64,000 nt of DNA, taken from Mustelus asterias. Its lineage: Eukaryota. The stretch lies in NCBI RefSeq assembly GCF_964213995.1, contig NC_135804.1, positions 58,900,001 through 58,964,000 of the forward strand, read 5' to 3'. Below the pieces are notes generated by a model. It was not told where the DNA came from. It ran no database searches and worked only from the letters and a program-made list of their open reading frames with translations. This document shows, in pieces, positions 481 to 61,245 of this stretch (within the stretch, counting starts at the first letter, position 1; each line of letters begins with the position of its first letter). The translations under genes and the position numbers were made by a program.

Positions 481-588
481 CAGCTGAAGCTTTTAATTTG
501 AGTCTCGTCAAAATAATTATCAACAGTACAACAGCCAATGCGCCGCCTGCACATCCGAAAATGAGCGTAAATTCGATTCCTGAAATAG
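481..588 (-). CDS. Gene B transmembrane exon
   Basis: AISGIEFTLIFGCAGGALAVVLLIIILTRLKLKASA; an alternative in-frame acceptor lies 9 nt downstream (exon start 579). Confidence 0.9.
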
Positions 589-3500
589 CTACAAGATCAA
601 CAAATGATTGAAATAAGAAACTATAGAACACAGCGAGAATTATACACAGTCTTGGGTCTAGCACGGGAGGGCGCGGTGCAAAGTTGTCTTTCCTGTAATT
701 GTGTCCATTTACTCTGTGTGGGGACCGACACTTTTATTTCTATAGGCAGTAGCTATAGGAGGATTATAACGTGACCCAAACGACAGTAACGCGATTTATG
801 GAGGAAACTAATCTATAAAGGCGCAGGAAGTTTCTCTCTAGACGTGAGGGCTTTTCGGTCAGAGTAAAGGGACTTACATTTGTGCCACGCCAGACAGACG
901 CGCACCGGCTACAAAGAGACGCAAAGTTTTTCATTCTTCAGCACTGACAACGAGAGAATACCTACTGTAGCTCTTTGTAGGTAACAAGAACAGCTTGCAT
1001 TTAACATTCCAAAACGCCCAAACGCAGCGTTATCAAACACAATCAAACCACATAAATAATATTATGACAGCTGGAGGTAGAGTTCAAGGAGCGTCGAAAA
1101 TGAGAGAGTTGGAAAGGCGGGGATACTCAGAGCGGGAGTTGGATTCAGACAGCGGAAGGCACTGTGCGGAGATAACGATTTTATCATACATCCAAATCAA
1201 ATATTCAGGATATAAAAGTGACTACTAAAACTGATCATTTTTGTGTGTACGTTTATTTCACTTGGCAAGAATTTGACGAGGAATAAGCACATCAATCATA
1301 GAACCATAGAAAAGTTGGGGCGGCACGGTAGCACAGTGGTTAGCACTGCTTCTTCACAGCTCCAGGGACCTGGGTTCGATTCCCGGCTTGGGTCACTGTC
1401 TGTGTGGAGTTTGCACATTCTCCTCGTGTCTGCGTGGGTTTCCTCCGGGTGCTCCGGTTTCCTCCCACTGTCCAAAGATGTGCGGGTTAGGTTGATTGGC
1501 CAGGCTAAAATTGCCCCTTAGTGTCCTGAGTTGCGTAGGTTAGAGGGATTAGCGGGTAAATATGTAGGGATTAGGGGGTAGGGCCGGGGTGGGATTGTGG
1601 TCGGTGCAGACTCGATGGGCCAGATGGCCTCTTTCTGCGCTGTAGGGCTTCTATGATTCTAAAATTAAAGCACAGAAGGAGGCCACTCGGCTCATCTTTT
1701 CCATGCCAGCTGCATGGTGCCCTTTCTAATCTCACCTTCCTGCGTCCGGCCCATAGCCCTGTGGCTTACTTAAGGAGTTTAACAACACCAAGTTAATGTC
1801 CAACAGGTTTATTTGGTAGCAAAAGCCACACAAGCTTTCGGAGCTCCAAGCCCCTTCTTCACCTGAAAGCTCCGAAAGCTTGTGTGGCTTTTGCTACCAA
1901 ATAAACCTGTTGGACATTAACCTGGTGTTGTTAAACTTCCTACTGTGTTTACCCCAGTCCAACGCCGGCATCTCCACATCATGCTTACTTAAGGTCCAGA
2001 TCCAGGTACTTTTTTAAAAAAAGTTTAGGGTCTCTGCCTCCACCAACTCAGGCAGCGAATTCCAGACACCCACCGCCCTTTGTGTAAAAAAAGGCATTCC
2101 TCGTGTCTTCTCTACACCTTCTGCCACTTATATTAAATCTATGACCCCTGGTTCTAGAATTCTCCGTCAAGGGAAACGATTTCATCCTGTCCATTCTATC
2201 TCTTCCCCTCATAATTGTGTACACCTCTATCAAGTCACTTCTCAGACTTCTTTGTTCCAAGGAAAATAATCTCAACCTATCCAATCTCTCTTCATAGCTA
2301 CACTTTTCTAGCCCTGGCGATCTCCCGTTTTAGGTCTTTTCAGGAAAATGTTCTCCCTCCTCCAGCTACAAACTATCTTGATCATTTTAATTCGTTCCCA
2401 TTGATGTGACATTGAGATTAAATAAAGTCCACATTAACCCTGTAAATTCGAGTTTGAACAGCTGCCCAGCTACATTAATAATAAATAATACAAATCGGAG
2501 CTTTTACCCCCGCTCGTTTCTGTAAATGTTTCGAATCTTACCTTGCATGACGGTGTAGCTGACACTGGCAGGCACCTGAAGGGAGATATGAGATGCCAGA
2601 CATGTATAAACTGCTCCGTTCTGGAGAGGCTGCGCTTCTTCCAAAGAACTGGAGACCTCAAAAAGACCATCCACTGTCTCGTTTCTCACAGTTTCTATTC
2701 CGGCCAGAATTTCCACACCATCTCTTTGCCAGGAGATTTTTAAATCCTCCGGGTAAAATGCAGCCGTTTTACACTCGAATCTTCGAGAAGTCGCTGAATT
2801 CTCTTCAATCGGAACGATTTTCAGTGGTGTTGGAGGAACTTTTAACAGGGGGAAAAATCATTTTTGAATTGAAAAGAGTAAATTCTCAATTGCCGAACCT
2901 CGATACGCACTTACAGTCATACTGTGATAATAGTTATGGTGCTGTCGCGTTTTTTTAAACTTCGGGCGTGCATTTATTTTATATAATGTTATACGACGCT
3001 CAGCAAAATTGCCGGATGTTTTGCAAGCGGTACACAAAGAGGATCATTCTCCCAGACATGGTAACAACCAGGGAAGAAAATGTCACTGCTCGGAATTAAA
3101 GCCATGATGTGGAGATGCCGGCGTTGGACTGGGGTAAACACAGTAAAAAGTCTCACAACACCAGGTTAAATTCCAACAGGTTTATTTGTCAAATAAACCT
3201 GTTGGACTTTAACCTGGTGTTGTGAGACTTCTTACGGAATTAAAGCAGCAGATCCTGGCGCGGGATTGTGTTTGGCAGCAGTGACCCCGATTCAGATACC
3301 GGTCCGAATGTATCAGAGAGGGAGCACCAACCAGTCGGCATGAACATTGGGTTCTACTCGGGTTTTTCTGTAAGAAGCATTGTTGTACTAAACGTTGTGT
3401 GTTGGCTTGAAAAATGACCCATTTCAAATATTTAATGTTTCCAAACGTATTTTGTTTTATTGATTAATGTTAAGATGCGTGAAATCAAGATACCGCCGAT

Positions 3501-6500
3501 ATCTAAATTGGCTCCAGACAAGATATAGTTATATGTATAGATTAAAACCCGTGAGTTACCATTGATTACACAACATTTCAATGCCCGTGGTTGAGGTTTC
3601 AGATCGTGCAATTTTCACCAAAGCATCTTTCTGGGGGCTGGATGCGAATGTTGGAGTATTTTGCAAGCCAGGATAATTTTTGATAATTATATATCGCTAT
3701 GTAGATCACAACACCCAGGGATTAATTCCAGAGATAAAAACAGGCCCCATGTTGGTAAACTCAGCGGTTTGACTGAGTTTTCATTTCAGATTTCCAGCAA
3801 CGGCAGTATTTTGCTTTTATTTGACTGGTTAGTTTGCCCTTCTGCAATTTTACTCGATCTGCTGAACACATTTTGTCTGGAGAAGATTCCGCTTCGAGCA
3901 GCCCAAAGTTACAATTTTCTGATGTGAACCGCTCTATCTATCTGTCCACTCTATCTCCAATCACCTTTTAACTGGACGTGAAGTCTCGTTTCATCGATTT
4001 ATTTATTAGAATCAATCTCCTTAATATTTTTTATTTACAAGTCTACTTTTCCGACATTGTAGCTCCTTGACACAAATTAATAATTTACAAGTATTATTAA
4101 CTTTCAAAATTATGTTAGTCTTTATTCCCAGCCAAACCTCAGAATTCCTCCATTCTTTCCCCATGGACCTGCTTTAGGTACAATACAAAATGCGACAGAA
4201 TTCCCGCTGGGGAGAAAGAAGCGCATGGGGACTGTACACAGAAGTAATGAATTACACATAGACGTTTATAGAAATGTTCGGTGGTATCCATTCTCCACTT
4301 TACCAGTTGTGAGTGCATCATAGAAAGTCCAGTTGGCGTACCCCAAAGGTTCAAACCAGAGCATCGGGCACCTTAACTGTCCTGTAAAGTCCAGGACCCG
4401 GGGTGGAATCCAGCATTGAGGGAAAGATCAAAACCCTCCTTCTCAGAGGATTGTAGCATTCCATTGTGGAAAGATCTTGGAATTTCAAACAAGTTACTAA
4501 TGGACACAACTACAACATATAAACTGTTATCCTAGGAACAGGGGCCCATTCAGCCCGACTCCCTTTGCTCTGCCAACCTTGGTGATAGTGATTAACACTG
4601 CTGCCTCACAACGCTAGGGACCCGGGTTCAATTCCTGGCTTGGGTGACTCTGTGCGGAGTTTGCACATTCTCCCTGTGGGTTTCTTCCGGCTGCTCCAGT
4701 TTCCTCCCAAACTCCAAAGATGTGCTGATTAGATGGATTGGCCATGCTAAATTGCCCCTTAACGTTCGGTGATTTAGCAGGGTAAATACGTAGGGTTAGG
4801 GGGATAGGGCCTGGGCGCGATTGTTGTCGGTGCAGGTTCGATGGGCCAAATGGCTTCCTTCTGTACTGTAGGTATTCTATGATTCTGCCTGATCTCTAAG
4901 TCAACTCCATTTGTCCGACTTAATTCATACTTAGCAAAAATCTAGCCGTCGCAAATTTAAGGCAATGACGTAAAGAAAGTGTTACATCAGCAATTTTGGG
5001 CAGTGGGCGGAAAAGGGATCTGATTTTGGAAATACTCGTTGCTATACTCGGGGAATTTTCACCTGAGTTTATCATGAAGGCACTTAGAGTGAGGGTTCAG
5101 AAAAGGTTTGTTGGAGATTTACCAGGGTCAAGGGTTGTAGATTATGTGCAGAGACTGAAGAAACCACGGTTGTTCTCTTTAGACCTGATAGCTTTAAGAG
5201 GAGGCTGGATAGCGATTTTGAAAGTTCTGACAAATTTGATAAAGTCAGTGAGCAGAAAGTGTTCTCAGTGACACAAGAGTCAGCAACCAGAAGGTGTTTG
5301 GCAAAAGAACGCAAGGATTCTGATCTTTGAGTGGAACGTAATGACAGTCAAGTCCCTGTTATTGTTACCATGTTGTTCAGCTTAAATCGCGAGCAGTGAG
5401 TGTAGGGATCCCGATTGATTTTCGCTTCCTGGTTAAATCAACTAACTCGGCATTTCGAAACGGCCCTGCAACAAACAGAAATGCCTTGAATAACCGGTCT
5501 TACTTTCCTCGAAATCTTCTTTTTGCAATCACCTTTGCGGGGGAATATTCCTTCCTTTTTGATTTAAGTTAAATGATCTTTGAAGTTTTGTAAAAGATTT
5601 GACCTGGGAGGTGTTAAAATTGCTTACATTGTTCAATTGTGGCACCATTGTGGCGAGAAGGAACCAGACCCTAACATCCCATTACAACATCAATGCAAAA
5701 CACTGCACAGGCTTGAAATTTGAAATACAAACCGAAAATACCGAGAATGTTCAGAGTTCGGGCAAGATCTGTGTAGAGAAACTGAGTTAACGTTTCAGAT
5801 CATTTCATCATCGACATGAAAGGTTAACTTTGTTTCCCTCCACAGAGAGAACAGATATGTTGAGGTTTTTCCAAATTTTTCTCTTTATATTTCGTGTATT
5901 TCCATTGCTTAATTTCAAAATGAAAATATCCACTGTGCATCGAGGGAGGTCAGTGGAGGACAATCCAGTGTTCTGTTAAAATAATTCGCTATAACCAGCT
6001 TTTCCTCCAGTGATAAAAAAATCAAATTGCATATATGGCGCTGAGCTGAAATCCTCCCGTTTACAATAACACCTACCGTACACAGTAAGCTGGGTGCCAG
6101 TTCCAGTTTCATTAGATTTTTCTGGATATTTTACTTTACAATAATACACTCCGGAATCTGCGAAAGTCACATTCAGGAATTCAAGCGAACTTCTTCCCTT
6201 GTTCGCATCAAATCGCTTTCTGCTGTCTGGTTGGAGAAAGGATTGCTCTCCGCGTCTCCACCAACGAACATCGGGCGCATCTTGAAATATGGGAAATGTG
6301 CAGAACATGGAAGCATTCGCGCCTCTGCTCACCTTCAAGTATTTAGGGATCTGAACCACTTCGTTCCAAGTTACTCCGGCGGCTGTCAGGAAAGTAACAA
6401 AGGCGGTGAGGTAACAGATAAAGAAAAATAACTGAGAGAAGTAAATTATACAAACAAGCAATCGAATTAGAGAAGCACAGTATCCAATTTTACAGTGGGT

Positions 6501-21325: not shown

Positions 21326-21578
21326 GAGATCAGAATGACCAGAGGAGGTCCCTGTTTCCCGCAAATTGTTGCTGGGCTGGAGTAATAATTGTCGGAATTA
21401 TGCACCAGCTATAGCTCCGGAATATCTCATTACTCTCAATGTGTAAATTGTGGTCCAAATGTTCACCTTCAAAGAACATTCATTTTAATCTCCTATCTGT
21501 TAATGTGAATTTGCACGCCTATTGTAAAGGTTTGAATTGCAAAGCGATGTGCGCGCAGATGATAAACGTGTGTCTTGC

Positions 21579-32171: not shown

Positions 32172-32392
32172 TGATGTGGAGATGCCGGCGTTGGACTGGG
32201 GTAAACACAGTAAGAAGTTTAACAACACCAGGTTAAAGTCCAACAGGTTTATTTGGTAGCAAAAGCCACACAAGCTTTCGAGGCTCTGAGCCCCTTCTTC
32301 AGGAAGAAGGGGCTCAGAGCCTCGAAAGCTTGTGTGGCTTTTGCTACCAAATAAACCTGTTGGACTTTAACCTGGTGTTGTTAAACTTCTTA
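32172..32392. mobile_element. Palindromic mini-Penelope insertion (perfect 92-bp arms)
   Basis: 32209-32300 is the exact reverse complement of 32303-32394; duplication CTTCATAGTAGATG (32158-32171, 32393-32406). Confidence 0.85.
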
Positions 32393-32644
32393 CTTCATAG
32401 TAGATGACATGAAAAACCTCCAAAGAATAGATAAAAATCAAGAGGCAGAAAGGAGGGAGAAAATCAATGCAATCATTATCATTAGAGAAAAAGCACGAGG
32501 TAAACTAATGAGAATAAATGTTGCCAAGACTCTATCTCATTGCTTGCATTGCTAGTGTTCTAAATGGAGAACTGTAGTCAATAGCTGAAACATTATTTAG
32601 AACCTTCCAAAATTCATTAGATTCTACAGAGGCCCAAATGGATG

Positions 32645-39124: not shown

Positions 39125-42100
39125 GGGCTAGTATTCTCACAAGAGAAATCTAAGTGTCCAACAGATGGGAGAATGGGAGATTTTCCCAACAGTCTTTTGG
39201 ATGTATTTAGTTTCACGAACCTCTGGCACCCTGTGCTCCACCAAGTGCCTCAGGGCGATTCACGCTAGTAAGTGGGGGTGGGGCCTCATCCTGCCTGAGA
39301 AGCTGGTACCGTAGAACTGAGTGGGCCACTGCACACACATTGATCTGTCAGTGGGGAAATCGGTGCATGTGCTTGGGCCCCACCATCCCTGGCCTCTGTA
39401 TTGTCAGCCTCCTTCTCCCAAATACCGGCCCCTTCTCCTGATCGGCAGCCCTCTTCTCCCAATCACCAGCCCTCTTCTCCTGATCACCGGCCTTCTTCTC
39501 CTAATCACTGGCTTCCCAATACCACCCCCGCCAGCCTACCTGAGCCCCATCCCACCACCACCAACCCCCCCCCACCTAATCGCCAACCTATCTGACTCAT
39601 CACCCTTGGTCAGCTCTAATCCCCCGCCCCCCCATGGGCAGCCCTGAACTGATCCCCCATGGCCAGCCCCGATCTCCCACCCCCATGTGCTGCCTCAATC
39701 ACCTCCTCCCTCCCTTCCTCACTGATCCCATTGCACAGCGAGTCCTCCCCACATCAAAGAACAAAGAACAAAGAACAGTACAGCACAGGAAACAGGCCCT
39801 TCGGCCCTCCAAGCCTGTGCCGCTCCTTGGTCCAACTAGACCAATCGTTTGTATTCCTCCATTCCCAGGCTGCTCATGTGACTATCCAGGTAAGTCTTAA
39901 ACGATGTCAGCGCGCCTGCCTCCACCACCCTACTTGGCAGAGCATTCCAGGCCCCCACCACCCTCTGTGTAAAAAACATCCCTCTAATATCTGAGTTATA
40001 CTTCGCCCCTCTCATCTCGAGCCCGTGACCCCTCGTGAACGTCACTTCTGATCTGGGAAAAAGCTTCCCACCATTCACCCTATCTATCCCCTTCATAATC
40101 TTGTACACCTCTATTAGATCTCTACTCATTCTCCGTCTTTCCAGGGAGGACAACCCCAGTTTACCCAATCTCTCCTCATAGCTAAGACCCTCCATACCAG
40201 GCAACATCCTGGTAAACCTTCGCTGCACTCTCTCTAATGCCTCCACGTCCTTCTGGTAGTGCGGCGACCAGAACTGGATGCAGTACTCCAAATGTGGCCT
40301 AACCAGCGTTCTATACAGCTGCATCATCAGACTCCAGCTTTTATACTCTATACCCGTCCTATAAAGGCAAGCATACCATATGCCTTCTTCACCACCTTCT
40401 CCACCTGTGTTGCCACCTTCAAGGATTTGTGGACTTGCACATCTAGGTCCCTCTGTGTTTCTACACTCCTGATGACTCTGCCATTTATTGTATAACTCCT
40501 CCCTACATTATTTCTTCCAAAATGCATCACTTCGCATTTGTCCGGATTAAACTCCATCTGCCACCTCTCCGCCCAATTTTCCAGCCTATCGATATCCTGC
40601 TGTATCGCCCGACAATGCTCTTCGCTATCCGCAAGTCCAGCCATCTTCGTGTCATCCGCAAACTTGCTGATTACACCAGTTACACCTTCTTCCAAATCAT
40701 TTATATGTATCACAAATAGCAGAGATCCCAGTACAGAGCCCTGCGGAACACCACTGGTCACAGACCTCCAGCCGGAAAAAGACCCTTCGACCACTACCCT
40801 CTGTCTCCTATGGCCAAGCCAGTTCTCCACCCATCTAGCCACTTCTCCTTGTATCCCATGAGCCTTAACCTTCTTAACCAACCTGCCATTTAGGACTTTG
40901 TCAAATGCCTTACTGAAATCCACATAGACGACATCCACGGCCCTTCCTTCATCAACCGTTTTTGTCACTTCCTCAAAAAACTCCACCAAATTTGTAAGGC
41001 ACGACCTCCCTCTTACAAAACCATGCTGTCTGTCACTAATGAGATTGTTCCGTTCTAAATGCACATACATCCTGTCTCTAAGAATCCTCTCCAACAACTT
41101 CCCTACCACGGACGTCAAGCTCACCGGCCTATAATTTCCTGGGTTATCCCTGCTACTCTTCTTAAACAACGGGACCACATTCACTATCCTCCAATCCTCA
41201 GGGACCTCACCCGTGTCCAAAGAAGCGACAAAGATTTCCGTCAGAGGCCCAGCAATTTCATCTCTCGTCTCCCTGAGCAGTCGAGGATAGATGCCATCAG
41301 GCCCTGGGGCTTTGTAAGTTTTAATGTTCCCTAAAAAACCTAACACTTCCTCTCTTGTAATGGAGATTTTCTCTAACGGGTCAACACCTCCCTCCGAGAC
41401 ACTCCCGGTTAACACGCCCCTCTCCTTCGTGAATACCGATGCAAAGTATTCATTTAGGATCTCCCCTATTCCCTTGGGTTCTAAGCATAATTCCCCTCCT
41501 TTGTCCCTGAGAGGTCCGATTTTCTCCCTGACAACTCTTTTGTTCCTAACATATGAATAGAATGCCTTAGGATTCTCCTTAATCCTGCCTGCCAAGAACA
41601 TCTCGTGACCTCTTTTTGCCCTTCTAACTCCCTGTTTGAGTTCTTTCCTACTCTCTCTGTATTCCTCCAGAGCTCCATCTGTTTTCTGTTGCCTGGACTT
41701 AACATACGCCTCCCTTTTCATTTTAATCAGATCCTCAATTTCCCTGGTTATCCACGGCTCTCGAATCCTACCTTTCCTATCTTTCCTTTTTACAGGCACA
41801 TGCCTATCCTGCAGCCTTATCAATAGTTCCTTAAAAGACTCCCACATGCCAGACGCGGACTTACCCTCGAACATCCTCTCCCAATCAACATCCACCAATT
41901 CCTGCCTAATCCGGCTATAGTTAGCCTTCCCCCAATTTAGCACCCTGCCCGTAGGACAGCACTCATCCTTGTCCATTACTATCCTAAAGTTAACAGAGTT
42001 GTGGTCACTATTTGCCACATGTTCCCCTACCGAAACTTTGACGACCTGACCGGGCTCATTTCCCAGAACTAGGTCTAGTATAGCCCCCTCTCTAGTCGGG

Positions 42101-44688
42101 CTATCTACATACTGTTCCAAAGAACCTTCCAGTACGCATTTTACAAATTCTTCCCCGTCCGGATCCCCAGCTCTAAGCACTTTCCAGTCTGTGCCAGGGA
42201 AATTAAAGTCCCCCACTACAACAACCCTATTTTTTCTGCACCTATCCAGAATCTCCTGACATATCCTTTCCTCCACTTCCCGTGGGCTGTTGGGTGGTCT
42301 GTAGTACACCCCCAGCATAGTGACTGCACCCTTCCTGTTTCTGAGTTCCACCCACAGCGACTCAGTACATGACCCCTCTAAGTTGTCTACCCTCTGCACC
42401 ACGGTAATATGCTCCTTAACTAATATCGCTACTCCCCCACCTTTTTTAGCCCCTCCTCTGTCTCGCCTAAAACACTTATACCCCGGAATATTCAGCTGCC
42501 AGTCCTGTCCTTCTTTTAACCAAGTTTCCGTCACCGCAACCACATCCAAATTCCGCATAAGCATTAAGGCCCTAAGTTCATCAGTTTTACCCGTTACGCT
42601 CCTCGCATTGAAGCAGATGCACTCCAGACCTCCAGGCCCACTCAGGTCATCCTCCTCCAGAGTGCTCCTCTTCTTAGCTAGCCTTGCTCTGGCCCCCAGC
42701 TCAACCCCAGCCTCAGTATTTACTGACCTACTGTTTTGTTCCCACCCCCCTGCCACACTAGTTTAAATCCTGCCGAAACACTCTAGCAAAACTCCCAGCC
42801 AGGATATTTGCTCCCTTCCAGTTAAGGTGTAACCCATCCTTTCTGTACAGTTGCCATCCTGACTTGAAGATTTCCCAGTTATCTATGAATTTAAAACCCT
42901 CCCTCTTGCATCAGTCCTTTAGCCACGCGTTCAACTGTAGAATCTCCCTGTTCCGAGCCTCACTTGCACTAGACACCGGGAGCAGTCCAGAGATTGCTAC
43001 CCTGGAGGCCTTACTTTTTAGCCTAGTACCCAACTCCCTGAATTTCTCTTGTATGACCCCCCTGCTCTTCCTACCTACATCATTTTCACCAATGTGTATA
43101 ATCACATCCGTTTGACTACATTCCTTTTTAAATATGCTTCCTACCCTCTCGGAGACATCCAGTACCCCAGCACCAGGGAGGCAGACTATCATCCTGGATT
43201 CTCGTTCACTCCCACAGAACCGCCTGTCCGTGCCTCTAACCATTGTGTCCCCCACAACTATCGCTCTCCTAAACCCTTTCTTTCCCTTCCGGACCCCTGA
43301 GCCTGTCTCCGTGGAGGTGATCTGGTCCTCGTGGCTTACCCCTGGAGGGTCATCCCCCTCCACAGAATCCAAAACAATATACCTATTTTGGAGGGGGACA
43401 ACCACAGGGGATCCCTCCACAGACTGCTCACTCCCTTCCCTTCTCCCATCTTTTGCCCATCCCTTTCTTTAATGGGAGACTGCCACTGGGGTACTTTCTG
43501 GCACATCACCCTTCTGACTATTACCCCTCCTAACTGTGACCCACGTGTTTTCCTTCCGAGACCCTGGTGTCACTACCTGACTATAACTTTTATCTATTAA
43601 TGTCTCATTTTCCCTAACTAAACTGAGTTCATCGAGCCTCAGCTCCAGCTCCCTTACACGATCCTTCAGGAGTTGCAGTTCCACGCATCTGGCACAGATA
43701 TGGACTTCCGGGAGGCAAGTTGTCTCCAGGAACTCCCACATCCCACACCGAATGCAGTATACTGGCCTCCCACTCATACCAGCCATGTCCTTTTTAGTTT
43801 TTGGGAGATAAAACAAAAAAGGGGGTGTAACAGAAGAAAAACAAACAACCTTCCTCGCCTTCGCTGAAGCCCTGTGAGCCAAAGCCCTTCCAGCTCACAC
43901 TCTGCTCCCTGCTCATTCCACTGCCCGATCCAGATGCTGCCCGCTCAAAAGTGTGGCCTGCTTTTAAACCCTCCAAAAAACCTCCCCGGGCTGCTCCTGG
44001 GCCTACTTCCTGTTTTGAAAAAAACCCTCCTTTTTAAATGAGCCCTTTTTAAACCTTCCCCAGGCTGCTCCTGGGCCTACTTCCTGTTTTGAAAAAAACC
44101 TCCGATTTTTAAGCCAAATTTAACTGAAAAATAAATGAATAAAATGCAGACACAATCTCTCTTACCCTCAGCCTGCTCCTGTGGAACAGGACTATCAACA
44201 CTGATAGTCCCCCTCAGTAGGTCCCATCTCTTCATTAGGCCCCGCCCTCCTCTGGCCCCGTGCCCTTGGCACTGCCCGGTGCCTGGTGGGCAGTGCCAGG
44301 GTGTCAGGCTGGTACTTCACAAAGGGCACCCCCCCTGCCCCCAACCTTCCGGGAGGGCTTCAATGACCTCTATCCCCACCAGCGGGGTGATCATGCCTGG
44401 TGCTCATTGATGGAGGCCAGTTGTAATCTGTGCTTGTGGGAACCTCTCCAGGTGTGGGGGAGACACTAACGAGCCCAGAAAATACCGTCCTGGGCTTGGT
44501 AATCATACTGAAATTGGAACTTCAACAACTTCGCGCCAATTTCCAGCAAATGGCTGATTACATTCAAAAATATTGCCTTGGAGACTTATGATCAGCCAGG
44601 CACCAGTCAGAAGTCCACTGTAGGCCTCCCGCTGATGTCTCCCTGCCTGGGCTACTCAAGCAGTGCAGCGGTCTGGGAGAATTGCCCC
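39125..44688. mobile_element. GC-rich MITE-like element split by the full-length LINE
   Basis: GGGCTAGTATTCTC ... GGGAGAATTGCCCC ends; internal similarity to 29148-30261 in reverse orientation. Confidence 0.6.
39757..44180 (-). mobile_element. Near full-length CR1-clade LINE (HER1-like): 5'UTR, ORF1 (Zn-finger, coiled coil, SGNH esterase), ORF2 (APE + RT), (TCTTTGT)n tail
   Basis: ORF1 43786->42758 has CxxC..CxxC, VVGDT, HIGEND, DGLHLN with two in-frame stops; ORF2 42756->39836 has TETW, GDFN, SDH, PQGSVLG, FADD with one frameshift near 40350; tandem ~45-bp repeat in the 5'UTR. Confidence 0.92.
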
Positions 44689-47191: not shown

Positions 47192-48770
47192 TTAAGAACA
47201 TAAGAACATAAGAAATAGGAGCAGGAGTAGGCCATCTAGCCCCTCGAGCCTGCCCCGCCATTCAATAAGATCATGGCTGATCTGACGTGGATCAGTACCA
47301 CTTACCCGCCTGATCCCCATAACCCTTAATTCCCTTACCGATCAGGAATCCATCCATCCGCGCCTTAAACATATTCAGTGAGGTAGCCTCCACCACCTCA
47401 GTGGGCAGAGAATTCCAGAGATTCACCACCCTCTGGGAGAAGAAGTTCCTCCTCAACTCTGTCTTAAACCGACCCCCCTTTATTTTGAGGCTGTGTCCTC
47501 TAGTTTTAACTTCCTTACTAAGTGGAAAGAATCTCTCCGCCTCCACTCTATCCAGACCCCGCATTATCTTATAAGTCTCCATAAGATCCCCCCTCATCCT
47601 TCTAAACTCCAACGAGTACAAACCCAATCTCCTCAGCCTCTCCTCATAATCCAAACCCCTCATCTCCGGTATCAACCTGGTGAACCTTCTCTGCACTCCC
47701 TCCAATGCCAATATATCCTTCCTCATATAAGGGGACCAATACTGCACACAGTATTCCAGCTGCGGCCTCACCAATGCCCTGTACAGGTGCATCAAGACAT
47801 CCGTGCTTTTATATTCTATCCCCCTCGCAATATAGGCCAACATCCCATTTGCCTTCTTGATCACCTGTTGTACCTGCAGACTGGGCTTTTGCGTCTCATG
47901 CACAAGGACCCCCAGGTCCCTTTGCACGGTAGCATGTTTTAATTTGTTTCCATTGAGATAGTAATCCCATTTGTTATTATTTCCTCCAACGTGTATAACC
48001 TCGCATTTCTCAACGTTATACTCCATTTGCCATATCCTCGCCCACTCACTCAGCCTGTCCAAATCTCTCTGCAGATCTTCTCCGTCCTCCACACGATTCA
48101 CTTTTCCACTTATCTTTGTGTCGTCTGCAAACTTCGTTACCCTACACTCCGTCCCCTCCTCCAGATCATCTATATAAATGGTAAACAGTTGCGGCCCGAG
48201 TACCGATCCCTGCGGCACGCCACTAGTTACCTTCCTCCAACCGGAAAAACACCCATTTATTCCGACTCTTTGCTTCCTGTCGGATAGCCAGTCCCCAATC
48301 CACTTTAACACACTACCCCCAACTCCGTGTGCCCTAATCTTCTTCAGCAGCCTTTTATGGGGCACCTTATCAAACACCTTTTGGAAATCCAAAAACACCG
48401 CATCCACCGGTTCTCCTCCATCAACCGCCCGAGTCACATCTTCATAAAAATCCAACATGTTCGTCAAGCACGACTTTCCCCTCATGAATCCATGCTGCGT
48501 CTGATTGATCAAACCATTTCTATCCAGATGCCCTGCTATCTCCTCTTTAATAATGGATTCCAGCATTTTCCCTACTACAGACGTTAAGCTGACCGGCCTA
48601 TAGTTACCCGCCTTTTGTCTCCTTCCTTTTTTAAACAGCGGCGTAACATTAGCCGTTTTCCAATCAACCGGCACTACCCCAGAATGCAACGAGTTTTGAT
48701 AAATAATCACTAACGCATCCACTATTACCTCTGACATTTCTTTCAATACCCTGGGATGCATTCCATCCGT
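47192..48770 (-). mobile_element. Young 5'-truncated CR1/HER1-type LINE with intact RT frame
   Basis: 495-aa uninterrupted ORF with PQGSVLGP and FADD; (TTCTTATG)n tail. Confidence 0.93.
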
Positions 48771-49709
48771 TATTTTCAATGTTATTGAAAATAGTATATT
48801 GGATCAGCCTCTGGTCTATATTTCTATAGCACTTGGGGCGAATGGGAAGAAAGGTTATTGGGAAAAAACTGGATTAGGCTATTGAGTTGGATGATCAGCC
48901 ATGATCGTAATGAATGGCGGAGCAGACTCGAAGGGTCAAATGGCTTCCTCCTGCCCCTATCTTTTATGTTTCTATGTACTCTAGTGATCTTTCCTCTCTA
49001 ACAGTAGAACCTGTGTCCCTGTGCAGATTAGCTTGTCTGTCTCTCTGATGGAAATGGGCTACTTTAAAGAATAATTTTGGAAGCAGCTTCATTCAGTGCA
49101 TTTTATGGAGTTTCGGGCGCAGGGGCTTTCCTCATCCCTCTCTATTCTGTGACCGAAAAGACCGTGATTCAGATAGTATTTACAGCGAATGATTGCTGCC
49201 ACCTCAGGCAGTCACTCGGTGACAATGGACTTTGAAAGGCAACTGTTAAATTTGTTACACAATAGAAATGAATACTCATTTTTCAAAAGTTGAATCGATT
49301 GACACTTCCTTGGAGTTCAAGCGACTCCTCGTGAAATTGTATGATACAAACCATGCACGCGGCATTTTAAGAACGATCACAAGTTGACATTACAAAATGT
49401 CGATGCCAATTAGTTGCTAATATCACAATAAGATCACCCTGCACATTTGAAATCCGGAAGACGGGTAGATTTTCAACTTGTCGACAACCTCAGACTGGTT
49501 TTGGAAATCTTGCCCTGGTCACGGAAAGCAGCCGATATTGGATTGGTTCTATAATAGTCCAACGAGCAATTCTGCCAGTTATGATGTTCTAGATAGTTAG
49601 CCTGGCTGCAATCAATGTAAACAGTAATGGATGCATTTTAAGATTTATAATCGAATAGTCTGATCCTGCACTCATAAATATCTCACACCTGCAAACAGTA
49701 TTTAGATTC

Positions 49710-49847
49710 TCAACTTCTTTCTTTCTTTGTCACGTTCACTTCAGCATACACTGCGCGTTTGTTTTGTTTAAGTTTTGATGGGTCCTTGGAATCAGCAAGC
49801 TGCAAGGCGGCATAAGTCAGCTTGTTATCTCCACCTCTTTGTTTAGT
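49710..49847 (-). CDS. Gene A terminal exon (ITIM LTYAAL; AVYAEV), stop TGA
   Basis: TTTCACAG| TKQRGGDNKLTYAALQLADSKDPSKLKQNKRAVYAEVNVTKKERS*. Confidence 0.85.
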   Translation of the reverse strand, partial: TKQRGGDNKLTYAALQLADSKDPSKLKQNKRAVYAEVNVTKKERS

Positions 49848-52800
49848 CTGTGAAAGTAATATTTAATATCACCGTAAATCCATCATCCAATCATTATTGA
49901 GACAATTGACATTTTAACGAAAGACTTATGGAATTTCCTTTCATTAGTTCCAATTTCAGATTGTAATCGGATTTTGGACTGGCTTCCTTTTCCTTCTCTG
50001 CAGCCCTCCCCCAAATCTTGTTGAAATTCCATTTGAACTTTCGTGTAAAATGAGTTCGTCTGTTAATATAGCTCATTGAAGTAAGCAGATTAATTATTTG
50101 ACTAAAATAAAAAAAGTAATTCCATGCTGCTCTGTTAAGGCTGTTGGGAAAGCTGATATTACACAAGATTGTTTTAAGGCCCAATTGTCTGAACATCGAC
50201 AGCCGCAGTGCCCTGCTTATCCCACGGGGGAAGGCTCGAGGCCACATTTTTCAATCGCCTTACCGCCATTCCCCCTAAGCTCCCGATCTCTGGGGCATGA
50301 GGCAAAAATGACGAACTTGTTTGAAATCAACCGACAGAGCACAGTTGGCAGATTAAGCAAGGAACCTTCCCATTTCCTGCATCTCAGTGTCGTATCACAT
50401 AATATTGATGCCATTACAGTAAATGACCTAAGATCTACCTGGGAATATACGATACTCTCCTCCCCCTGCCTGGGGTTCGCCTTTTTCCTGGTGTCAATTT
50501 TGACTGTGGCATAGGTCAGGCTGTTGGCGGTGCCGTGTTTTGTCTGTAAAATAGATATTTTCCACATGTAGTTGGTGAATTTCTTGTTTCGTAGTTTGGG
50601 ACAAGCATTATTCCAGGCAGACCCGAAAAAGAAACGTGGATAATATTGACTCTGTTTTTGTGTAAAACCGACTACGAGCCCGCAGCCCGATTTGCAACTC
50701 TCCAAATTGCTATTTCCAACCAAGTCAGCAGGAGAAATGCCAATTAATAAGGACTTGTTGAAATCTGTCCCATAAAGATAAAACTTTCCCCAATCCGCTC
50801 AGATTCTGAACAATTAATCAATATTGACTCTGTCATGTATGGTCATATCGTAGAATCCATACAGTGCAGAAGGAGGCCATTCGGCCCATAGAGCCTGCAC
50901 CGACCACAATCCCACCCAGGCTCTATCCCCTTAAATCCACCTAATCCCCGCTAATCCCCTGACATTAAGGGGTAATTCACTTAACTTGCACATCTCTGGA
51001 GTGTAGGAGGAACACAGTAAGAAGTTTAACAACACCAGGTTAAAGTCCAACAGGTTTATTTGGTAGCAAAAGCCACACAAGCTTTCGGAGCTCTAAGCCC
51101 CTTCTTCAGGTGAGTGGGAATTCTGTTCACAAACAGAGCATATAAAGACACAGACTCAATTTGGATGAATAATGGTTGGAATGCGAATCAACTAATCAAT
51201 ATATTCGGGTAAGCGTTCTCCAAGGCAGCCTTCGTGACACACGACAGCGCAGAGTCGCTGAGCAGAAACTGATAGCCAAATTCCGCACACACGAGGACGG
51301 CCTCAACCGGGATATTGGGTTCATGTCACACTATTTGTAACCTCCACAGTTGCGTGGACCTGCAGAGTTTCACTGGCTGTCTTGTCTGGAGACAATACAC
51401 ATCTTTTTAGCCTGTCTTAATGCTCTCTCCACTCACATTGTTTTGTTTCTTAAAGACTTGATTAGTTGTAAGTATTCGCATTCCAACCATTATTCATGTA
51501 AATTGAGTCTGTGTCTTTATATGCTCTGTGTATGAACAGAATTCCCACTCACCTGAAGAAGGGGCTTAGAGCTCCGAAAGCTTGTGTGGCTTTTGCTACC
51601 AAATAAACCTGTTGGACTTTAACCTGGTGTTGTTAAACTTCTTACTGTGTTTACCCCAGTCCAACGCCGGCATCTCCACATCGTGTAGGAGGAAACCAGA
51701 GTACCCAGAGGAAACCCACGCCAACATGGGTAGAATATGAATGTACAAACTCCACATAGACAGTTACCCGAGGCCGTAATTGAACCTGGGTACCTGGCGC
51801 TGTGAGGCAGCGGTGCTAACCACTTAGTTTGAGTATTTTTCGCCTCAATCCCTCAGTCCTACCTGAGAATAGATGGTGTGCTCTTTCTTGTGTCTCGGTT
51901 TGGAGGGTCCTTTTTCTTCTCTCAGGCTCAGACTAGCGTAGGCGACAATGTTCTCACCTGGCCTTTGTCTAACCTGTAAAAATAAGACACAAAATATTGA
52001 AAGCGGCGAGTCTGTCTCTATAGCAAGCTACTGTCAATTCTAATTAATTCTGTCACTGTAAATATGCAGACAGTAAACGATAAACTAGGTTGCAAGTGCA
52101 CTCTCTCCCTTCTCGACTATTGTATCAAATATCGAACCAATCAGGTGGAGAGTATTTGTTTAATCAGTTCAAGGGATGTTGGCTTCGCTGGCTAAGCTGA
52201 CATATGTTGACAGTCGATAATTGCCCTTGGACCGCTCCAGTCGGTGTGGGGTATGTGCGTCCATGGTGTTTTTAGGGAAGTACTTCTAGGATTTTGACCC
52301 AGCGACAGTGAAGGAACTGCGATTATTTTCCAAGCCAGGGTGGTCAGTGGTTTAGAGGGGACCTTCAAGGTGGTGTTCCTATATATCTGGCAGCTTTGAG
52401 ATAAGGCGAGTTGGTGCTGCTGGAGAGAGAGATCAGTCGAAAAGAAAAGCAGTACAGCTTCAGATAGGCATTCCTGGAAGATAAGTGGCAGTGGAGTAAA
52501 CACAAAGATAAAAGCAAAATATTGCAATGCTGGAATCTGAAACAAAATCAGAAAACACTGGAAAATCTCAGTAGGTCTGACAGCATCTGTGGAGAGTGAA
52601 TAGAACGTTGGCTCTATTCTGTTTCCACAGATGCTGTCTGACCTGCTGAGATTTCCAGCATTTTCTGTTTTTGTCTCAGATTCCAGCACCCACAGTATTT
52701 TACTTCTGGCTTTTGGGCCGTATATCTGCTGCTCTTGTCCTTCTAGGTGACAGTGGTCGTGAGTTTGGAAGGTGCTGTCTAAGAAGCCTTAATGAGTTTC

Positions 52801-55800: not shown

Positions 55801-58800
55801 AACAATTTCAAGTTTTCAAAATCCGCTTTACGTTGCCATTTTCAAGTCTCAATCACATAACACTCGTGTGATATCAACTTCGTTCTTTAACGATTTTGCA
55901 AAGGGCTCTTTATCCCTCTACAATGAATCTATGTATTTTAACAGTGTAACCGCGCATGAGAAAATAAAAATATGCAGCGAAATGTTAAAGGTACTTACCA
56001 GCTGATGCCTTTAATTTGAGCCTCGTCAAAATAATTATCAACAGTAAAATCGCCAATGCCCCGCCTGCACATCCGAAAATGAGCGGAAGTTTGACACCAC
56101 TATCTACAAGAACAAATGATTGAAATAAGAAACTGCGCGACTCAGCGAGATTCATACACAGGTGCAAATGTGTCTCTGAGAATAATCGCTCCTACTGTCA
56201 GTGGATCTCGACCGCTTTCACTTGTGAATTGTAGCTGAACAAAGATCACAACGTTTATCAAATCGCATAAACTGCACGTTAGTAATGCAATTTATGGAGG
56301 AAACACGTTTCATTCCATAACGGCGCAGTAAGCTTCTCATTGGCCTGAAGGGTTATTTGGTAAGAGTGAGGGAATGTACATTTCTTTCACCTTGACGCGC
56401 TGCACCAGACTGATGCGCAACGTCACAAAAAGTGACAAAGGCTTTCATTCTTCAGCGCGGACAACCATCCCCAGCCTTACCAGAGAACCTTGTTTTTGGG
56501 AGATAGCAAAAGCAATTTCCATACAAATCAGGAGCAGGTGTAGGCCATTCTGACCTGCGACCCAGCTCCTCTATTTGGCTGATCCATTGTGGCCTCAACT
56601 CTACTTTCCTCTTTATCTCCTGTAACTTTTAACTCCCTTGTCAATCAAAAATCTATCTAACTCAACCTTAAAAATATTCAATGACCTTGCAACACAACTT
56701 TCTGGGGAAGAGAATGCCAGAGACCAACCACGTCTTGAAAGAGAGAAAAAACTCGCCCCGTTTTAAATGGGAGGCCTCTTACTGTTAAAGAGTGTCCCTA
56801 ACATTAGCTCCCACATTTTCTCAGCAACCATCCTGTCAGGTCTCCTCAGGATCTATGTTCCAGAAAGATCACCCCCATTCTTCTAAACTCCAGTAGATAC
56901 AGGCCCAACCTGCCCCATCTTCCCTCATAAGATAACATCTTTGTTCCAGGAATCAGTGCAATGAAACTGCTTCTGAAGAAATTACATCCTTTCTTAAGTA
57001 AGAAGACAAAACTCCAGATGTGTACTCCAGATGAAACTTGCATTTATATAGCGTCTTCAACGAAGTAAAACCTCGAAAGATATTTCACGGAGCATTATCA
57101 AACAAAACTGAATACCGACTCACATCAAATGAGAGTGGAAGAGGTGGCGTTGGGGTTCAAGAACAGTCTTAAAGAAGCCGGAGCCGGAGAGGAGGGAGGT
57201 TTCCGAGAGTCGGGTGTTGACTGCTGAGAACACATTATTTTATTTTATATTTTAAATCCCAAGCAGGAGGCCATCTGGCCCATCGTGTTTGCACCGACAA
57301 CAATGCCATCCAGGTCCCATCCCCGTAGTCGCACATATTTACCCTGCTAATCCCCTTGACACTTAGGATCAATTTAACATGGCCAATCAAACTAACCCGC
57401 ACATCTTTTTGGGAGAAAACCGGAGCACCCGGAGGAAACCAAAGCAGACACTGGGAGAATGCTCAAACTCCACACAGTCACCGAAGGCTGGAATTGAACG
57501 TGGATTCTGGCGCTTTGAGGCAGCAGTGCTAACCACTGTGCCACCGTGATGATAACAATGACCCTCCCATGTATTGAATTGAAATGCTATAATTGCATGA
57601 TATAAAATTTAATCTTTAAGAACCGATCTATTTATCTATTTCATTTGGCAAGAATTTGGCGCGGAATGAACTTTCAGTTTTAATCAGTTCGCACATCAAC
57701 CTCCCGACCCAGATCTTTTGAAGGAAATATTCTCCCTCCTCTGGCTGCAAACTACCTTGATTATTTAAATTCATTCCCGTTGATGTGACATTGAGATTGA
57801 ATAAGGTCCACATTCACTCTATAATTTCGAGTTTGAATAGCTGCCCAACTACATGTCCAATAAATAACTACAGGTTGGAGCATTTCCCCCGCTCACTGCT
57901 GTAAATGTTTCAAATCTTACCTTGAATGGCGATATAGCTGACACTGGCGGGCACCTTAAGGGAGATATGAGATGCCAGGCATGTATAAACTATTCGGTTC
58001 GGGGCAGGCTGTGTCTCTTCCAAAGAACTGGAGACCTCAAAAAGACCATCCACTGTCTTGTTTCTCACAGTTTCTATTCCGGCCAGAATTTCCACACCAT
58101 CTCTTCGCCAGGAGATTTGTAAATCCTCTGGGTAAAAGGCGGCCGTTTTACACTCGAATCTCAGAGAAGTCGCTGAAATCCCTTCAACCTGAAGGAGATT
58201 CAGGGGGGTTGGGGGAACTTTAATAGAGAAATATAAGGACAATTAATTGAGCACATTCTAATTCGTCTACCTCCATTATGTTGTTACATTCCTAACGTGA
58301 GAATCGTCCGTGCTATCGTTTTTTAAAAAATGAACTCATATCTGCATTTATTTTAAAAATCTTTTCGCCGCGCACAGCAAATTGTTCGGAAGTATTGCAA
58401 ACTGCGAGGATGAATCGCCCAGACTTGGTGACAATTGATAAAGCACCTGTCACTGTTCTGAATGGAAACACAGCTCCTGGGATGAGATATATAAATGCAC
58501 ATTTTTCTGTAAGAGTCGTGGTCGTAATAAGCATTCTTATTAAAAATCAATTGTCCGAATATTTCATGTATTGTGAAACATATTTTGTTTTAACAATCGA
58601 TATTGAGAACATATGCGTAACTGTAATGTACAAGATGCACTGCAGGAACTCAAGGTTCCTTAGGCAGCACCTTCCAAACCCATAACGACCACCATCTAGG
58701 AGGACAAGAGCCAAGGAGGTTCCCCTCCAAGTCACTCACCATCCTGACTTGGAAGTATATATACACCAGGGACTGCACCGGTTCAAAAAGGCAGCTCACC

Positions 58801-61245
58801 ACCGCCTTCTTAAGGGCAACTAAGGATGGGCAATAAATGCTGGTCTAGTCAATTTTTCATAAATTAATTTTGAAAAAGTATGCCCAATATCTGTAAAGAT
58901 TCCAGACAAGATGTTACTTTATTTATACATAAAAATCCATGCTTTTATTAAACAACATTTCTATGGAGGGTGTTTCCGATCGTGTAGCATCTACAAAAGG
59001 AACTGTTCCCAGAGGGGCGTCCGAGGGCGAAAGCACATTTTTCGTCAGGAAAGGGCTTTATTGTTAATTCTTCATGGGTGTGTAGATCACAACATCCATG
59101 CAGAGTGAAGACAAATAAAAAAATCTTTACTCAGAATGCATGTGTAATCTAATTCCACGGGTTTTGCCCTTCTACAATTTCATTTGGTCTATTGAACACG
59201 CTTTACCTGGAGAATTTCCTCTTATATCAATCCTACATTTAAAATTTACTGCTGTGAACTTGTGTCCGCTAGTTCCATAGTCACTGTTTAACTGGAAGTA
59301 AATTCCCTCATTAGGTTTACATAGATTTGCACATTATAATCAATCTCCTTAATATATTTTATTTAGAAGTCTATTTTGCCGACATTGTAGTAACAGTAAT
59401 TAGTAATTTACACGCATTATTAACTTTCAGAATTATGTTAGTCTTTATTCCCAACAAAGCCTCAGAATTCCTCCATTATTGTCCCAAGGATCTGCTTTAG
59501 GTACATACGAAATGCGACAGAATTCCCGCTGGCCAGAAAGGAGTCAGTGTTCTCTCGGTCTCCTGCCTCAAACTTTCTTCTGTACATGGCGAGTGTGCAT
59601 GGAAATTACAAATACGGGACCTCAGACGTTCATAGAAATGTTCGGTGATATCCACTTTACCGGTTGTGAGTGCATCAGAGAGAGTCCTTTTGGTGCACCC
59701 CAGAGGTTCAAACAAGGGCCATGGCACCTTAACTGTCCTGCAAGGTCTAGGGGTGGAATCCAGCATTGAGGACAAGATCAACATATCCCCTCTCACTAGT
59801 TTGTAGGATCCCGTTATGGAAAGAGTTCGGAATTTCAACCAAATCACTAACGGACACAAGTGCAAATATAAACTGCGGATATAGAAACAGGGGTCCATTC
59901 GGCCCCACTAGCTTACTCTGCCATTCCTTTAAATTATGTCTGATCCATTTGTCCGACTTAGTTCCATTCTCTTGAAACCCACGATTTATTTCCCTTGATA
60001 TGCATCGAAAATTTAGTACAGCTCGATTATTCGATTGCAATTTTGAGCAGGGGCTGACAAGTTAGTTTGTGTATGGAATACTCATGCCTTTAAGTAGGCG
60101 AGTTTTCGCCTGAATGGATACAGGAGGCACCTTATTGGGACGAATAAGATGGTCATTAATGTTGCAGAAACTAATTAATTTCGGCGGTGTTAAAATTGTT
60201 TCAATCAAAGGTCGTAGATCTGAAACCTTGACTCTGTCCACAGATGTTCAATTACTTGTTTTCTGTTTTTATTTCAGGTTCCAAGCATATGAAACATTTT
60301 GCTTTTGTACAAAAATTGTCCCCAGTGTCGCACTTTGGCGTCGTTATTTTGGTGAGAGGGAACCTGACCATCTCATCCCATTGACTAATCGCAAACTGAG
60401 ACTGCAACTGTTATCCCGCTTCACTGTTTTTGGCGCAATAATAATTGCAACTTCACACATGGCACACATTGGGTGAAATGTCACGAAGACGAGAGTGGGT
60501 GAAATTGATCTTGGGCAGTGGCACAAAGCGGGCGAGAGGGAATCGAGGGCCGTTCTACAACAAGGTGACGGGAAAAGAAAATCCCAGCAGTGTAAAACGA
60601 ATCCGTCATTACCAGGTTTTCATCTAGTGATAGAAGTTCAAATTACACAAATCACGGATAGCTGAAAAGTACCCTTTCCCCGGTAGTTTGACACTTACCG
60701 CACACAGTGAGCTGGGAACCACTTCCATCCCCAATCTTGTTCTGTTGATGTTTTACTGAACAGTGATACATTCCGGAGTCTGCAACACTCGCATTCAGAA
60801 CTTCAAATGAACTACTGCTCTTCTTTAGATACATTTTCTTTCTGCTGTCTGGTTCCAGAACAGATTCCTCGCCCCGTTTCCACCAAGAAACTTCAGGAGC
60901 ACCATCAAATATGGGAAATGTGCAGAACATGGAAACATTGTCACCCCTGGCAACCGTCAAGTGTTTAGGGAACTGTTCCACTTTGCTCCAAGTTACTTTA
61001 GCGGCTATAAAAAAAACAGTAAAGAACGGTGATAACTAGAAAGAAAAATAACTTAACAGAGGAAAACAAATTAAGAGACACCAGCAGTCAGATTGGAGAA
61101 GCACAGCATCTATTTTTACAATGCATACAGTTGTAGACGTAAAATACAATTTAAGCTGTTCTAAAACGGCGAAGTAACAACTCAGGCTACCTGGCCAAAC
61201 CAGACTCAGAAGAGCCATGTACTGAACTGTAACTCTCATCGACAT
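49710..61245 (-). CDS. Gene A: inhibitory IgSF receptor, leader-V(J)-C1-TM-cytoplasmic multi-ITIM (SIRP/NKp30-like architecture), 8 coding exons, 386 aa
   Basis: join of 61191-61245, 60699-61004, 57921-58217, 55999-56103, 55515-55558, 51863-51973, 50439-50543, 49710-49847. All introns GT-AG, phases 1,1,1,1,0,0,0 compatible, 1161 nt open from ATG to TGA. Confidence 0.88.
50439..50543 (-). CDS. Gene A cytoplasmic exon 7 (ITIM LTYATV; IVYSQ)
   Basis: TTTTACAG| TKHGTANSLTYATVKIDTRKKANPRQGEESIVYSQ |GTAGAT; 105 nt, phase 0-0. Confidence 0.85.
51073..51117 (-). ncRNA. Minimal hammerhead ribozyme motif, sense to gene A pre-mRNA
   Basis: Exact reverse complement of 51545-51589. Confidence 0.7.
51545..51589 (+). 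ncRNA. Minimal hammerhead ribozyme motif (Penelope type)
   Basis: CAC-CTGAAGA-A-GGGGCT-TAG-AGCTCC-GAAA-GCTT-GTG: core boxes, stem II, palindromic AAGCTT stem III. Confidence 0.7.
51863..51973 (-). CDS. Gene A cytoplasmic exon 6 (ITIM VAYASL; TIYSQ)
   Basis: TTTTACAG| VRQRPGENIVAYASLSLREEKGPSKPRHKKEHTIYSQ |GTAGGA; 111 nt, phase 0-0. Confidence 0.85.
52503..52710. repeat. Older palindromic repeat of a second Penelope-like family (also ~5690-5895)
   Basis: TGCTGGAATCTGAAACAAAA.. / ..TTTTGTCTCAGATTCCAGCA inverted arms. Confidence 0.6.
53085..54275 (-). mobile_element. Decayed CR1-type LINE fragments with nested SINE tail
   Basis: 3' tail at 53085; KADNSPGHDDVH fragment. Confidence 0.7.
55515..55558 (-). 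CDS. Gene A short cytoplasmic exon DDNRNSVEAAQREER
   Basis: Strong polypyrimidine TTTTAG acceptor, CGG|GTAGGG donor; 44 nt converts phase 1 to phase 0 as the next exons require. Confidence 0.75.
55999..56103 (-). CDS. Gene A transmembrane exon (no charged residue)
   Basis: DSGVKLPLIFGCAGGALAILLLIIILTRLKLKASA, basic stop-transfer residues, TGTAG| acceptor and G|GTAAGT donor. Confidence 0.9.
56525..57030 (-). mobile_element. Decayed CR1-type LINE 3' end
   Basis: LSYEGRWGRLGLYLLEFRRM. Confidence 0.7.
57262..57547 (-). mobile_element. HE1-type V-SINE
   Basis: Reverse-orientation copy. Confidence 0.8.
57921..58217 (-). CDS. Gene A C1-set Ig exon
   Basis: FECKTAAFYP..ISW..DG..DGLFEVSSSL..YTCLASH are C1-set motifs (CxxxxFYP, YxCxxxH); 297 nt, AG/GT flanked. 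Confidence 0.93.
59520..59832 (-). pseudogene. Fossil extra C1 exon in gene A V-C1 intron
   Basis: IPNS..DLVLNAGFHP*TLQDS* and FYERLRSRI match VPPT..ECKTAAFYPEDLQISW and VYTCLASHI; acceptor reads AA instead of AG. Confidence 0.5.
60699..61004 (-). CDS. Gene A V-set Ig exon with germline-joined J-like G strand
   Basis: VSMFC...VSWW...ADSGMYHC...GDGSGSQLTV; poly-T/TAG acceptor, G|GTAAGT donor; 306 nt. Confidence 0.93.
61191..61245 (-). CDS. Gene A leader (signal peptide) exon MSMRVTVQYMALLSLVWP
   Basis: ATG at 61245, hydrophobic stretch, CAG|GTAGCC donor in phase 1; same 55-nt coding length as gene B leader. Confidence 0.85.

Follow-up and report, generated by a model that had tools for sequence, protein, structure and literature searches.

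Among living groups with adaptive immunity, cartilaginous fish are the oldest; descriptions of their inhibitory receptors are, to our knowledge, few. The SIRP-alpha tail has a tandem layout of ITIM and second tyrosine, and the PRARP tail carries ITIM/ITSM motifs. Described systems that resemble the locus reported here include (i) SIRP-alpha, with a non-rearranging V plus C1 ectodomain, an ITIM tail, paired relatives, and, according to PMC12324903, two C1 domains; (ii) PRARP, UrIg, and NKp30, non-rearranging genes with a joined VJ exon and a C1 domain (PMC10751288, PMC11599192), which are MHC- or antigen-receptor-linked by description; (iii) LILR/PIR, in which long ITIM-tail inhibitory receptors lie next to short-tailed Arg-TM activating relatives (PMC10679719); (iv) PECAM-1, whose tyrosine motifs lie on separate cytoplasmic exons and whose SHP-2 binding is tuned by splicing, the variants without exon 14 not binding SHP-2 (PMC5664058); and (v) SLAM, with the SAP-binding peptide TIYAQV, and PD-1, with TEYATI (PMC8204385, 10.1101/743773, PMC12151841, PMC7337045). 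Shark VJ-C1 genes are treated in PMC10751288, PMC12227049, and PMC11599192, and the accessible text of these papers does not describe the present cluster. A literature search that covered mainly open-access papers gave, among the matches listed, no description of a cartilaginous-fish V-C1 family or of its tail.

The window analyzed here is the 64,000-nt stretch C4:58,900,001-58,964,000 (contig NC_135804.1) of the 3.68-Gb genome of Mustelus asterias. It contains, on the minus strand, an eight-exon gene in leader-VJ-C1-TM-tail order, which we designate gene A. Exons 1–8 join into a single, intact open frame of 384 codons (384 aa). Its features, in window positions, are as follows.

61191..61239, minus strand: exon 1, leader, 49 nt, with ATG and GT donor; resembles the N-termini of P0022 and P0018; without RNA coverage
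60699..61004, minus strand: exon 2, V domain with a J-like G-x-G-x-x-L-x-V end; Pfam V-set E 2.1e-9, also I-set
57921..58217, minus strand: exon 3, C1 domain; Pfam C1-set E 1.4e-7
55999..56103, minus strand: exon 4, TM, hydrophobic core without a charged residue
55515..55558, minus strand: exon 5, 44-nt cytoplasmic linker, phase 1 to phase 0; peptide identical in catshark P0022
51863..51973, minus strand: exon 6, unit 1, 111 nt, phase 0/0; ITIM VAYASL at 51946-51929
51877-51863, minus strand: second tyrosine motif of exon 6, TIYSQ, cut by the donor CAG|GTAGGA
50439..50543, minus strand: exon 7, unit 2, 105 nt, phase 0/0; ITIM LTYATV at 50519-50502
50453-50439, minus strand: second tyrosine motif of exon 7, IVYSQ, cut by the donor CAG|GTAGAT
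49710..49847, minus strand: exon 8, terminal unit 3, 138 nt to the stop; ITIM LTYAAL at 49820-49803
49754-49737, minus strand: second tyrosine motif of exon 8, AVYAEV

An earlier note on this DNA had read the tail as a triplicated phase-0 exon, each unit bearing an ITIM and a second tyrosine. Its coordinates, exon lengths (111, 105, and 138 nt), phase 0, and GT-AG sites are borne out, and each of the six motifs that it quoted (VAYASL, LTYATV, LTYAAL, TIYSQ, IVYSQ, and AVYAEV) is found. Exons 6–8 all begin in phase 0 behind pyrimidine-rich acceptors ending in ACAG, and exons 6 and 7 have GT donors. The tail is expected to be disordered. Intron 6 contains an inverted pair (51011-51199 and 51458-51651; ~190 nt, 95% identical), which could form a long pre-mRNA hairpin between exons 6 and 7 and which belongs to a dispersed repeat with further copies near 1771-1983, 21107-21326, and 32204-32394. 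LINE-type reverse-transcriptase frames, recognized by eye, lie on the minus strand between gene A and its paralogue gene B (40351-42762, 47295-48803, and 27624-28706).

Exons 6–8 are homologous. At the protein level, exons 6 and 7 share 10 of 35 residues (z 5.5), exons 6 and 8 share 14 of 36 (z 10.7), and exons 7 and 8 share 11 of 35 (z 6.6), that is to say 29–39% identity, and in each pair the score was reached by 0 of 10,000 shuffles. The corresponding DNA identities (63/102, 65/106, and 56/102) were reached by 7, 0, and 49 of 5,000 codon shuffles, respectively. With the tyrosine motifs cut out, only exon 6 vs 8 was still significant (0/10,000 shuffles), the other two pairs giving 733 and 1,280 per 10,000 shuffles. 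The shuffle tests on protein and DNA thus confirm the common template that had been proposed for the three exons. The alignment that the earlier note called for, of the exons together with their flanking introns, gave similarity in the exons and none between their 200-nt flanks (6/6 comparisons). The copies are therefore old, and the flanks give no sign of a recent triplication. Introns 6 and 7 share one local match (score 39, 0/200 shuffles), which lies inside a dispersed repeat and was set aside. The "triplication" is one state in a family-wide range of one to four units, probably reached in two steps.

VAYASL, LTYATV, and LTYAAL all fit the ITIM consensus (S/I/V/L)xYxx(I/V/L) given in PMC12151841, and this match upholds the claim of three canonical ITIMs, one per exon. 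In exons 6 and 7, the second tyrosine is located three codons ahead of the donor, so the motif ends at the donor and its pY+3 is the first residue of the next exon, Thr. The spliced TIYSQT and IVYSQT match neither the ITIM consensus nor the ITSM consensus (TxYxxV/I); AVYAEV misses both, solely at pY-2. As all three fail, the spliced gene A protein has no complete ITSM, and its tail counts three canonical ITIMs and one near-canonical distal motif. The previous statement of six tyrosines, more than the four of SIRP-alpha, was thus too strong, since the internal second motifs (YSQ|T) are non-canonical after splicing; judged from their residues, they are likely weak or non-canonical docking sites and not extra ITIMs. 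Overall, the tail consists of three ITIMs on skippable homologous exons, not of six full motifs, and it is not unique to gene A.

Beyond what is directly observed of gene structure, exon homology, the 7-8 splice, unit-number variation, the absence of an intact middle exon from paralogues B–D, and the Arg-TM sisters, we consider it probable that exons 6–8 are old copies of a one-exon module in a likely inhibitory paired VJ-C1 receptor that recruits SHP-1/SHP-2. The module would comprise an ITIM, a basic spacer, and a second tyrosine within one exon, with three old homologous copies forming the tail of a non-rearranging VJ-C1 receptor, the inhibitory member of a paired cluster. SHP-1/SHP-2 would be recruited through the three ITIMs and the distal tyrosine motif; judged from these motifs, the three ITIM exons likely recruit phosphatases and so brake immune cells. 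The tail would have had a two-unit ancestor, the middle exon being added later by unequal crossing-over of unit 1 with the terminal unit.

The second motifs of relatives bear on this reading. Their pY+3 is V/I/L in 8 and Thr in 28 of 40 internal motifs, and V/I/L in 30 of 31 terminal ones, a contrast that is descriptive, the sequences being related. For the 40 vs 31 count, the lungfish protein was excluded, four uncertain model ends were set aside, two units were reclassified as internal, and units with an unaligned second motif were omitted. Internal motifs have T at −2 (32/40) and V/I at −1 (34/40) and resemble the SLAM TIYAQV, and terminal motifs have E at −1 (18/31) and resemble the PD-1 TEYATI (the two peptides as given in the sources cited above). 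Chimaera, rays, and sharks all retain the internal block T-[VI]-Y-[AS]-Q|T-K, a degree of conservation beyond that expected of a dead motif, and this counts against the module reading. Better conservation of junction tyrosines than of internal ITIM tyrosines was considered and rejected; in a hand-picked list, the first tyrosine was lost in 6 units and the second in 7.

The junction motif T-[VI]-Y-[AS]-Q|T might alternatively be a selected SLAM-type switch that serves for SAP/EAT-2-like docking or kinase priming, with read-through of the donor creating a full ITSM. The residue preferences above would agree with this, as would the likeness to the SAP-binding TIYAQV of SLAM (PMC8204385, 10.1101/743773) and the requirement of SAP binding for a hydrophobic pY-1, with use of extra contacts, as stated in PMC12151841 and PMC7337045. 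Read-through of the exon 6 donor gives TIYSQV, an ITSM, which in genes A and D runs on for four codons before a stop; read-through of the exon 7 donor gives IVYSQV, an ITIM. However, the Val is automatic because any phase-0 intron opens with a Val codon, and it was rejected as proof of a hidden ITSM; the early stop is missing in paralogues B and C; the sole AATAAA of intron 6 sits in a repeat ~800 nt downstream; no read-through RNA was seen in the sparse, repeat-dominated mapping of runs X1-X3; and the internal second tyrosine is lost in seven relatives. We therefore regard a switch of this type as improbable. The same low expectation attaches to its broader form, in which the tail would be programmed by splicing (pY+3 Thr if spliced, Val on read-through, absent if skipped) for SLAM-like SAP docking. 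If true, one shark gene would give receptors ranging from purely inhibitory to SAP-switchable, in a layout retained since before the chimaera-shark split, and the significance of the locus would be larger if the junction-spanning YxQ|T were a real splice-controlled adaptor site.

The module reading treats unit number as a property of the genome in the first place. Exons 6 and 7 are frame-symmetric (111 and 105 nt, phase 0/0), as had been pointed out, and the gain, loss, or skipping of an internal unit with phase 0/0 leaves the reading frame unchanged. Unit number would accordingly be fixed chiefly at the genome level, with minor skipping as a possible second influence. The suggestion that ITIM number could be tuned by splicing finds support in this symmetry, which would make skips of exon 6 or 7 in-frame; the one junction seen in gene A is 7-8 inclusion. 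One contig of run X1 (presumed RNA; 179 nt, depth 2.6, 0 mismatches) joins 50439 to 49847 exactly, spanning 50523-50439 and 49847-49754 and leaving out the 591-nt intron. It is the sole direct RNA evidence, whole-gene mapping of X1-X3 being dominated by repeats, and the support of the module reading by one low-depth contig, with none joining exons 5-6 or 6-7 or skipping a unit in this repeat-dominated mapping, counts against it. Runs X2 and X3 gave nothing on exons 7 and 8, and such blanks speak neither for nor against skipping or read-through.

Splicing could instead be the main dial, regulated skipping of exon 6 and/or exon 7 yielding isoforms with one, two, or three ITIMs. Besides the phase 0/0 of both exons, a RefSeq-modelled isoform of a Heterodontus paralogue is consistent with this, isoform X3 (P0177, 321 aa) differing from isoform X1 (P0176, 358 aa) by the lack of exactly one 37-aa unit, and the principle is established in PECAM-1 according to PMC5664058. 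Frame symmetry, however, is expected for any duplicated module exon, and the sole junction seen in gene A RNA is inclusion of exons 7 and 8. By simple count, CAG|GTAAGT is matched at 7 of 9 positions in the donors of exons 6 and 7, as it is in those of exons 2 and 3, so donor weakness does not distinguish them as skipped exons. P0010, without internal units, is not clean evidence and was rejected as a double-skip isoform because its exon 5 differs from that of P0019. Other database isoforms of the family, P0008 without the TM exon, P0128 without C1, and P0007 ending just past the exon-5 donor, hint at a broader splicing variety. We consider splicing as the main dial possible, with the balance of evidence against it.

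The gene A V exon has at least 56 matches in the genome out of 146 scored candidates; all lie on C4, from 54.7 to 70.0 Mb, and mostly in two clusters (58.8-60.0 and 67.7-70.0 Mb). The paralogous features used below are as follows.

481..6377 of the window, minus strand: paralogue gene B; V ~6377-6081, C1 2845-2534, TM ~583-482, tail beyond the window start
C4:58891220-58891123, 58834595-58834498, and 58779853-58779756: decayed middle exons of paralogues B, C, and D (L008, L010, and L012)
C4:59874335-59878466, plus strand: L014, V 95% identical to gene A, Arg-TM, stops a few residues past the TM
C4:59534014-59542702, plus strand: L019, V 92% identical to gene A, Arg-TM, apparently frameshifted just past the TM

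Units 1 and 3 are retained in paralogues B, C, and D, whereas the middle exon is frameshifted and lacks its acceptor and ITIM tyrosine, with a donor region that is still recognizable. The unit count that had been proposed for gene B and other paralogues thus gives two units in B–D, and the database protein P0054, in which unit 1 is spliced straight to the terminal unit, is in line with this loss. One intact unit is present in each of the paralogues at 68.6 and 70.0 Mb, P0081 has one decayed unit ahead of its intact unit, and the terminal exon of one Mustelus asterias paralogue is the end of P0081. An Arg-containing TM exon with no tail-exon match was found in 4 of 4 plus-strand close copies examined (three further close copies lie outside this count), and two of the four, L014 and L019, have V exons 92–95% identical to that of gene A. 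Judged from sequence, these two are likely activating partners. Because copies with a near-identical V carry an Arg-TM, gene A is likely to be the inhibitory partner within a cluster of paired receptors.

The middle exon might also be a near-neutral by-product of tandem-cluster recombination that adds little function. Paralogues B, C, and D have only a decayed form of it, Heterodontus P0018, P0019, and P0012 have a degenerate ITIM in it, its conservation is the lowest among the units (13/35 vs P0018), and exon 7 has no other match in the Mustelus asterias genome (1/1 candidate). On the other side, an intact, tyrosine-bearing copy is in frame in gene A and in two catsharks, and the exon is spliced in. 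On balance, a near-neutral middle exon seems unlikely to us, though less so than the SLAM-type switch.

The module itself is widespread. Gene A homologues are known from sharks, rays, and chimaera, with 62–74% V identity between gene A and the shark homologues. The RefSeq-modelled V-C1 cluster (Scyliorhinus canicula XP_038662960.1, Heterodontus XP_067906043.1, and Callorhinchus XP_007902824.2) has the domain order and tail module of gene A, and the first two of these proteins have its three-unit tail, whereas unit number (1–4) and surviving tyrosines vary by gene; the automatic RefSeq names are SHPS-1-like, NCR3LG1-like, and tapasin-related. Gene A shares with this family ectodomain and tail similarity, the tandem cluster, and the presence of inhibitory and Arg-TM forms. 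Three-unit tails are common to S. canicula (P0022), S. torazame, and Heterodontus (the catsharks being P0022 and P0015). P0022 is identical to gene A at 26/37, 23/35, and 27/36 residues of units 1–3, respectively, and the horn shark (Heterodontus) proteins P0018 and P0019 have the same three-unit tail.

In an HMM census of 47 tails with at least one unit, 12 had one unit, 26 had two, 8 had three, and 1 had four, counts that rest on gene models, are phylogenetically non-independent, and are too low where the HMM misses decayed units. The census dropped 23 ids (isoforms, near-duplicates, and own exons) and included the lungfish protein and fragments. The four-unit tail of Heterodontus P0057 is an exact two-unit block present twice, a recent duplication or a model artefact. 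Two or three units are present in five chimaera genes (P0017, P0037, P0035, P0043, and P0058), which places the origin of multi-unit tails before the chimaera-shark split. The two-unit tail is the commonest state and also occurs in chimaera and rays, and we infer on these grounds that it is ancestral.

The origin of the middle exon is most simply explained by unequal crossing-over of unit 1 with the terminal unit, and we lean toward this account. Of five genes compared, all five have a middle exon whose first 8 residues score closer to unit 3, and three have one whose last 10 are closer to unit 1 (one tie, one against). The exon 7 donor CAG|GTAGAT is also found at unit 1 of a distant paralogue. 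In gene A DNA, the 5′ end of exon 7 scores 12 vs −13 toward the terminal unit and its 3′ end 16 vs −42 toward unit 1, although exons 6 and 8 score 16 at their 5′ ends as well. A class-profile test of a chimeric middle exon was not discriminating, as leave-one-out was right for 2 of 12 unit-1 5′ halves and the 3′ half of exon 8 itself scored closer to unit 1. In the terminal exon, a Val codon (GAA|GTG in A, GAA|GTA in B–D) aligns with the donor position of the internal exons, which suggests that internal units may derive from a terminal-type exon whose Val codon turned into a donor.

If the module reading is correct, gene A shows a large shark paired-receptor family that varies its inhibitory output via one phase-0 exon module. 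A tail module that is gained, lost, and probably skipped would be a clean case of exon-level modular evolution. The principle is already known from PECAM-1, and the same tail is already modelled in databases for other sharks. Compared with PECAM-1, gene A likewise has its tyrosine motifs on separate cytoplasmic exons; the ectodomain is unrelated, and splicing, demonstrated in PECAM-1 (PMC5664058), is inferred in gene A. The pairing of inhibitory and Arg-TM forms resembles LILR/PIR as described in PMC10679719, but these have C2-type domains and no VJ-C1, so the likeness is one of design only.

A family profile of 18 members ranked immunoglobulins and UrIg2 above SIRP-alpha in the PDB, SIRP-alpha being the best non-immunoglobulin match (2wng, E 1.6e-29). 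Gene A has, as in the SIRP family, a joined VJ followed by a C1-set domain; its ectodomain is not V-C1-C1, a single C1 exon lying between V and TM. A further difference from SIRP-alpha lies in the tail, where every unit occupies an exon to itself and the internal units have an incomplete second motif. The lungfish protein P0163 has the tandem layout of ITIM and second tyrosine. NSFL1C and PDYN are neighbors of SIRP, and the NSFL1C family consists of SEP-domain genes. SEP-domain matches were found on C20 and C7 and none on C4 (matches without assignment to NSFL1C); an opioid-precursor search gave zero matches anywhere in the genome and is uninformative for SIRP synteny. By analogy, gene A likely works like SIRP-alpha or an inhibitory LILR, and we call it SIRP-like without assigning it as an orthologue of SIRP, NKp30, or PRARP.

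PRARP, UrIg, and NKp30 share the joined VJ and C1 with gene A, and UrIg2 is the top match for the gene A C1 domain; unlike these genes as they are described, the gene A cluster is not MHC-linked, all class I matches (140/140) being on C8 and all V matches (56/56) on C4. The 140 class I-like exon matches form a very large expansion at C8:21.6-43.4 Mb. Teleost NITR clusters sit on an FTO-bearing chromosome; in Mustelus asterias, FTO is located on the same contig as the V cluster (C4, 42.9 Mb).
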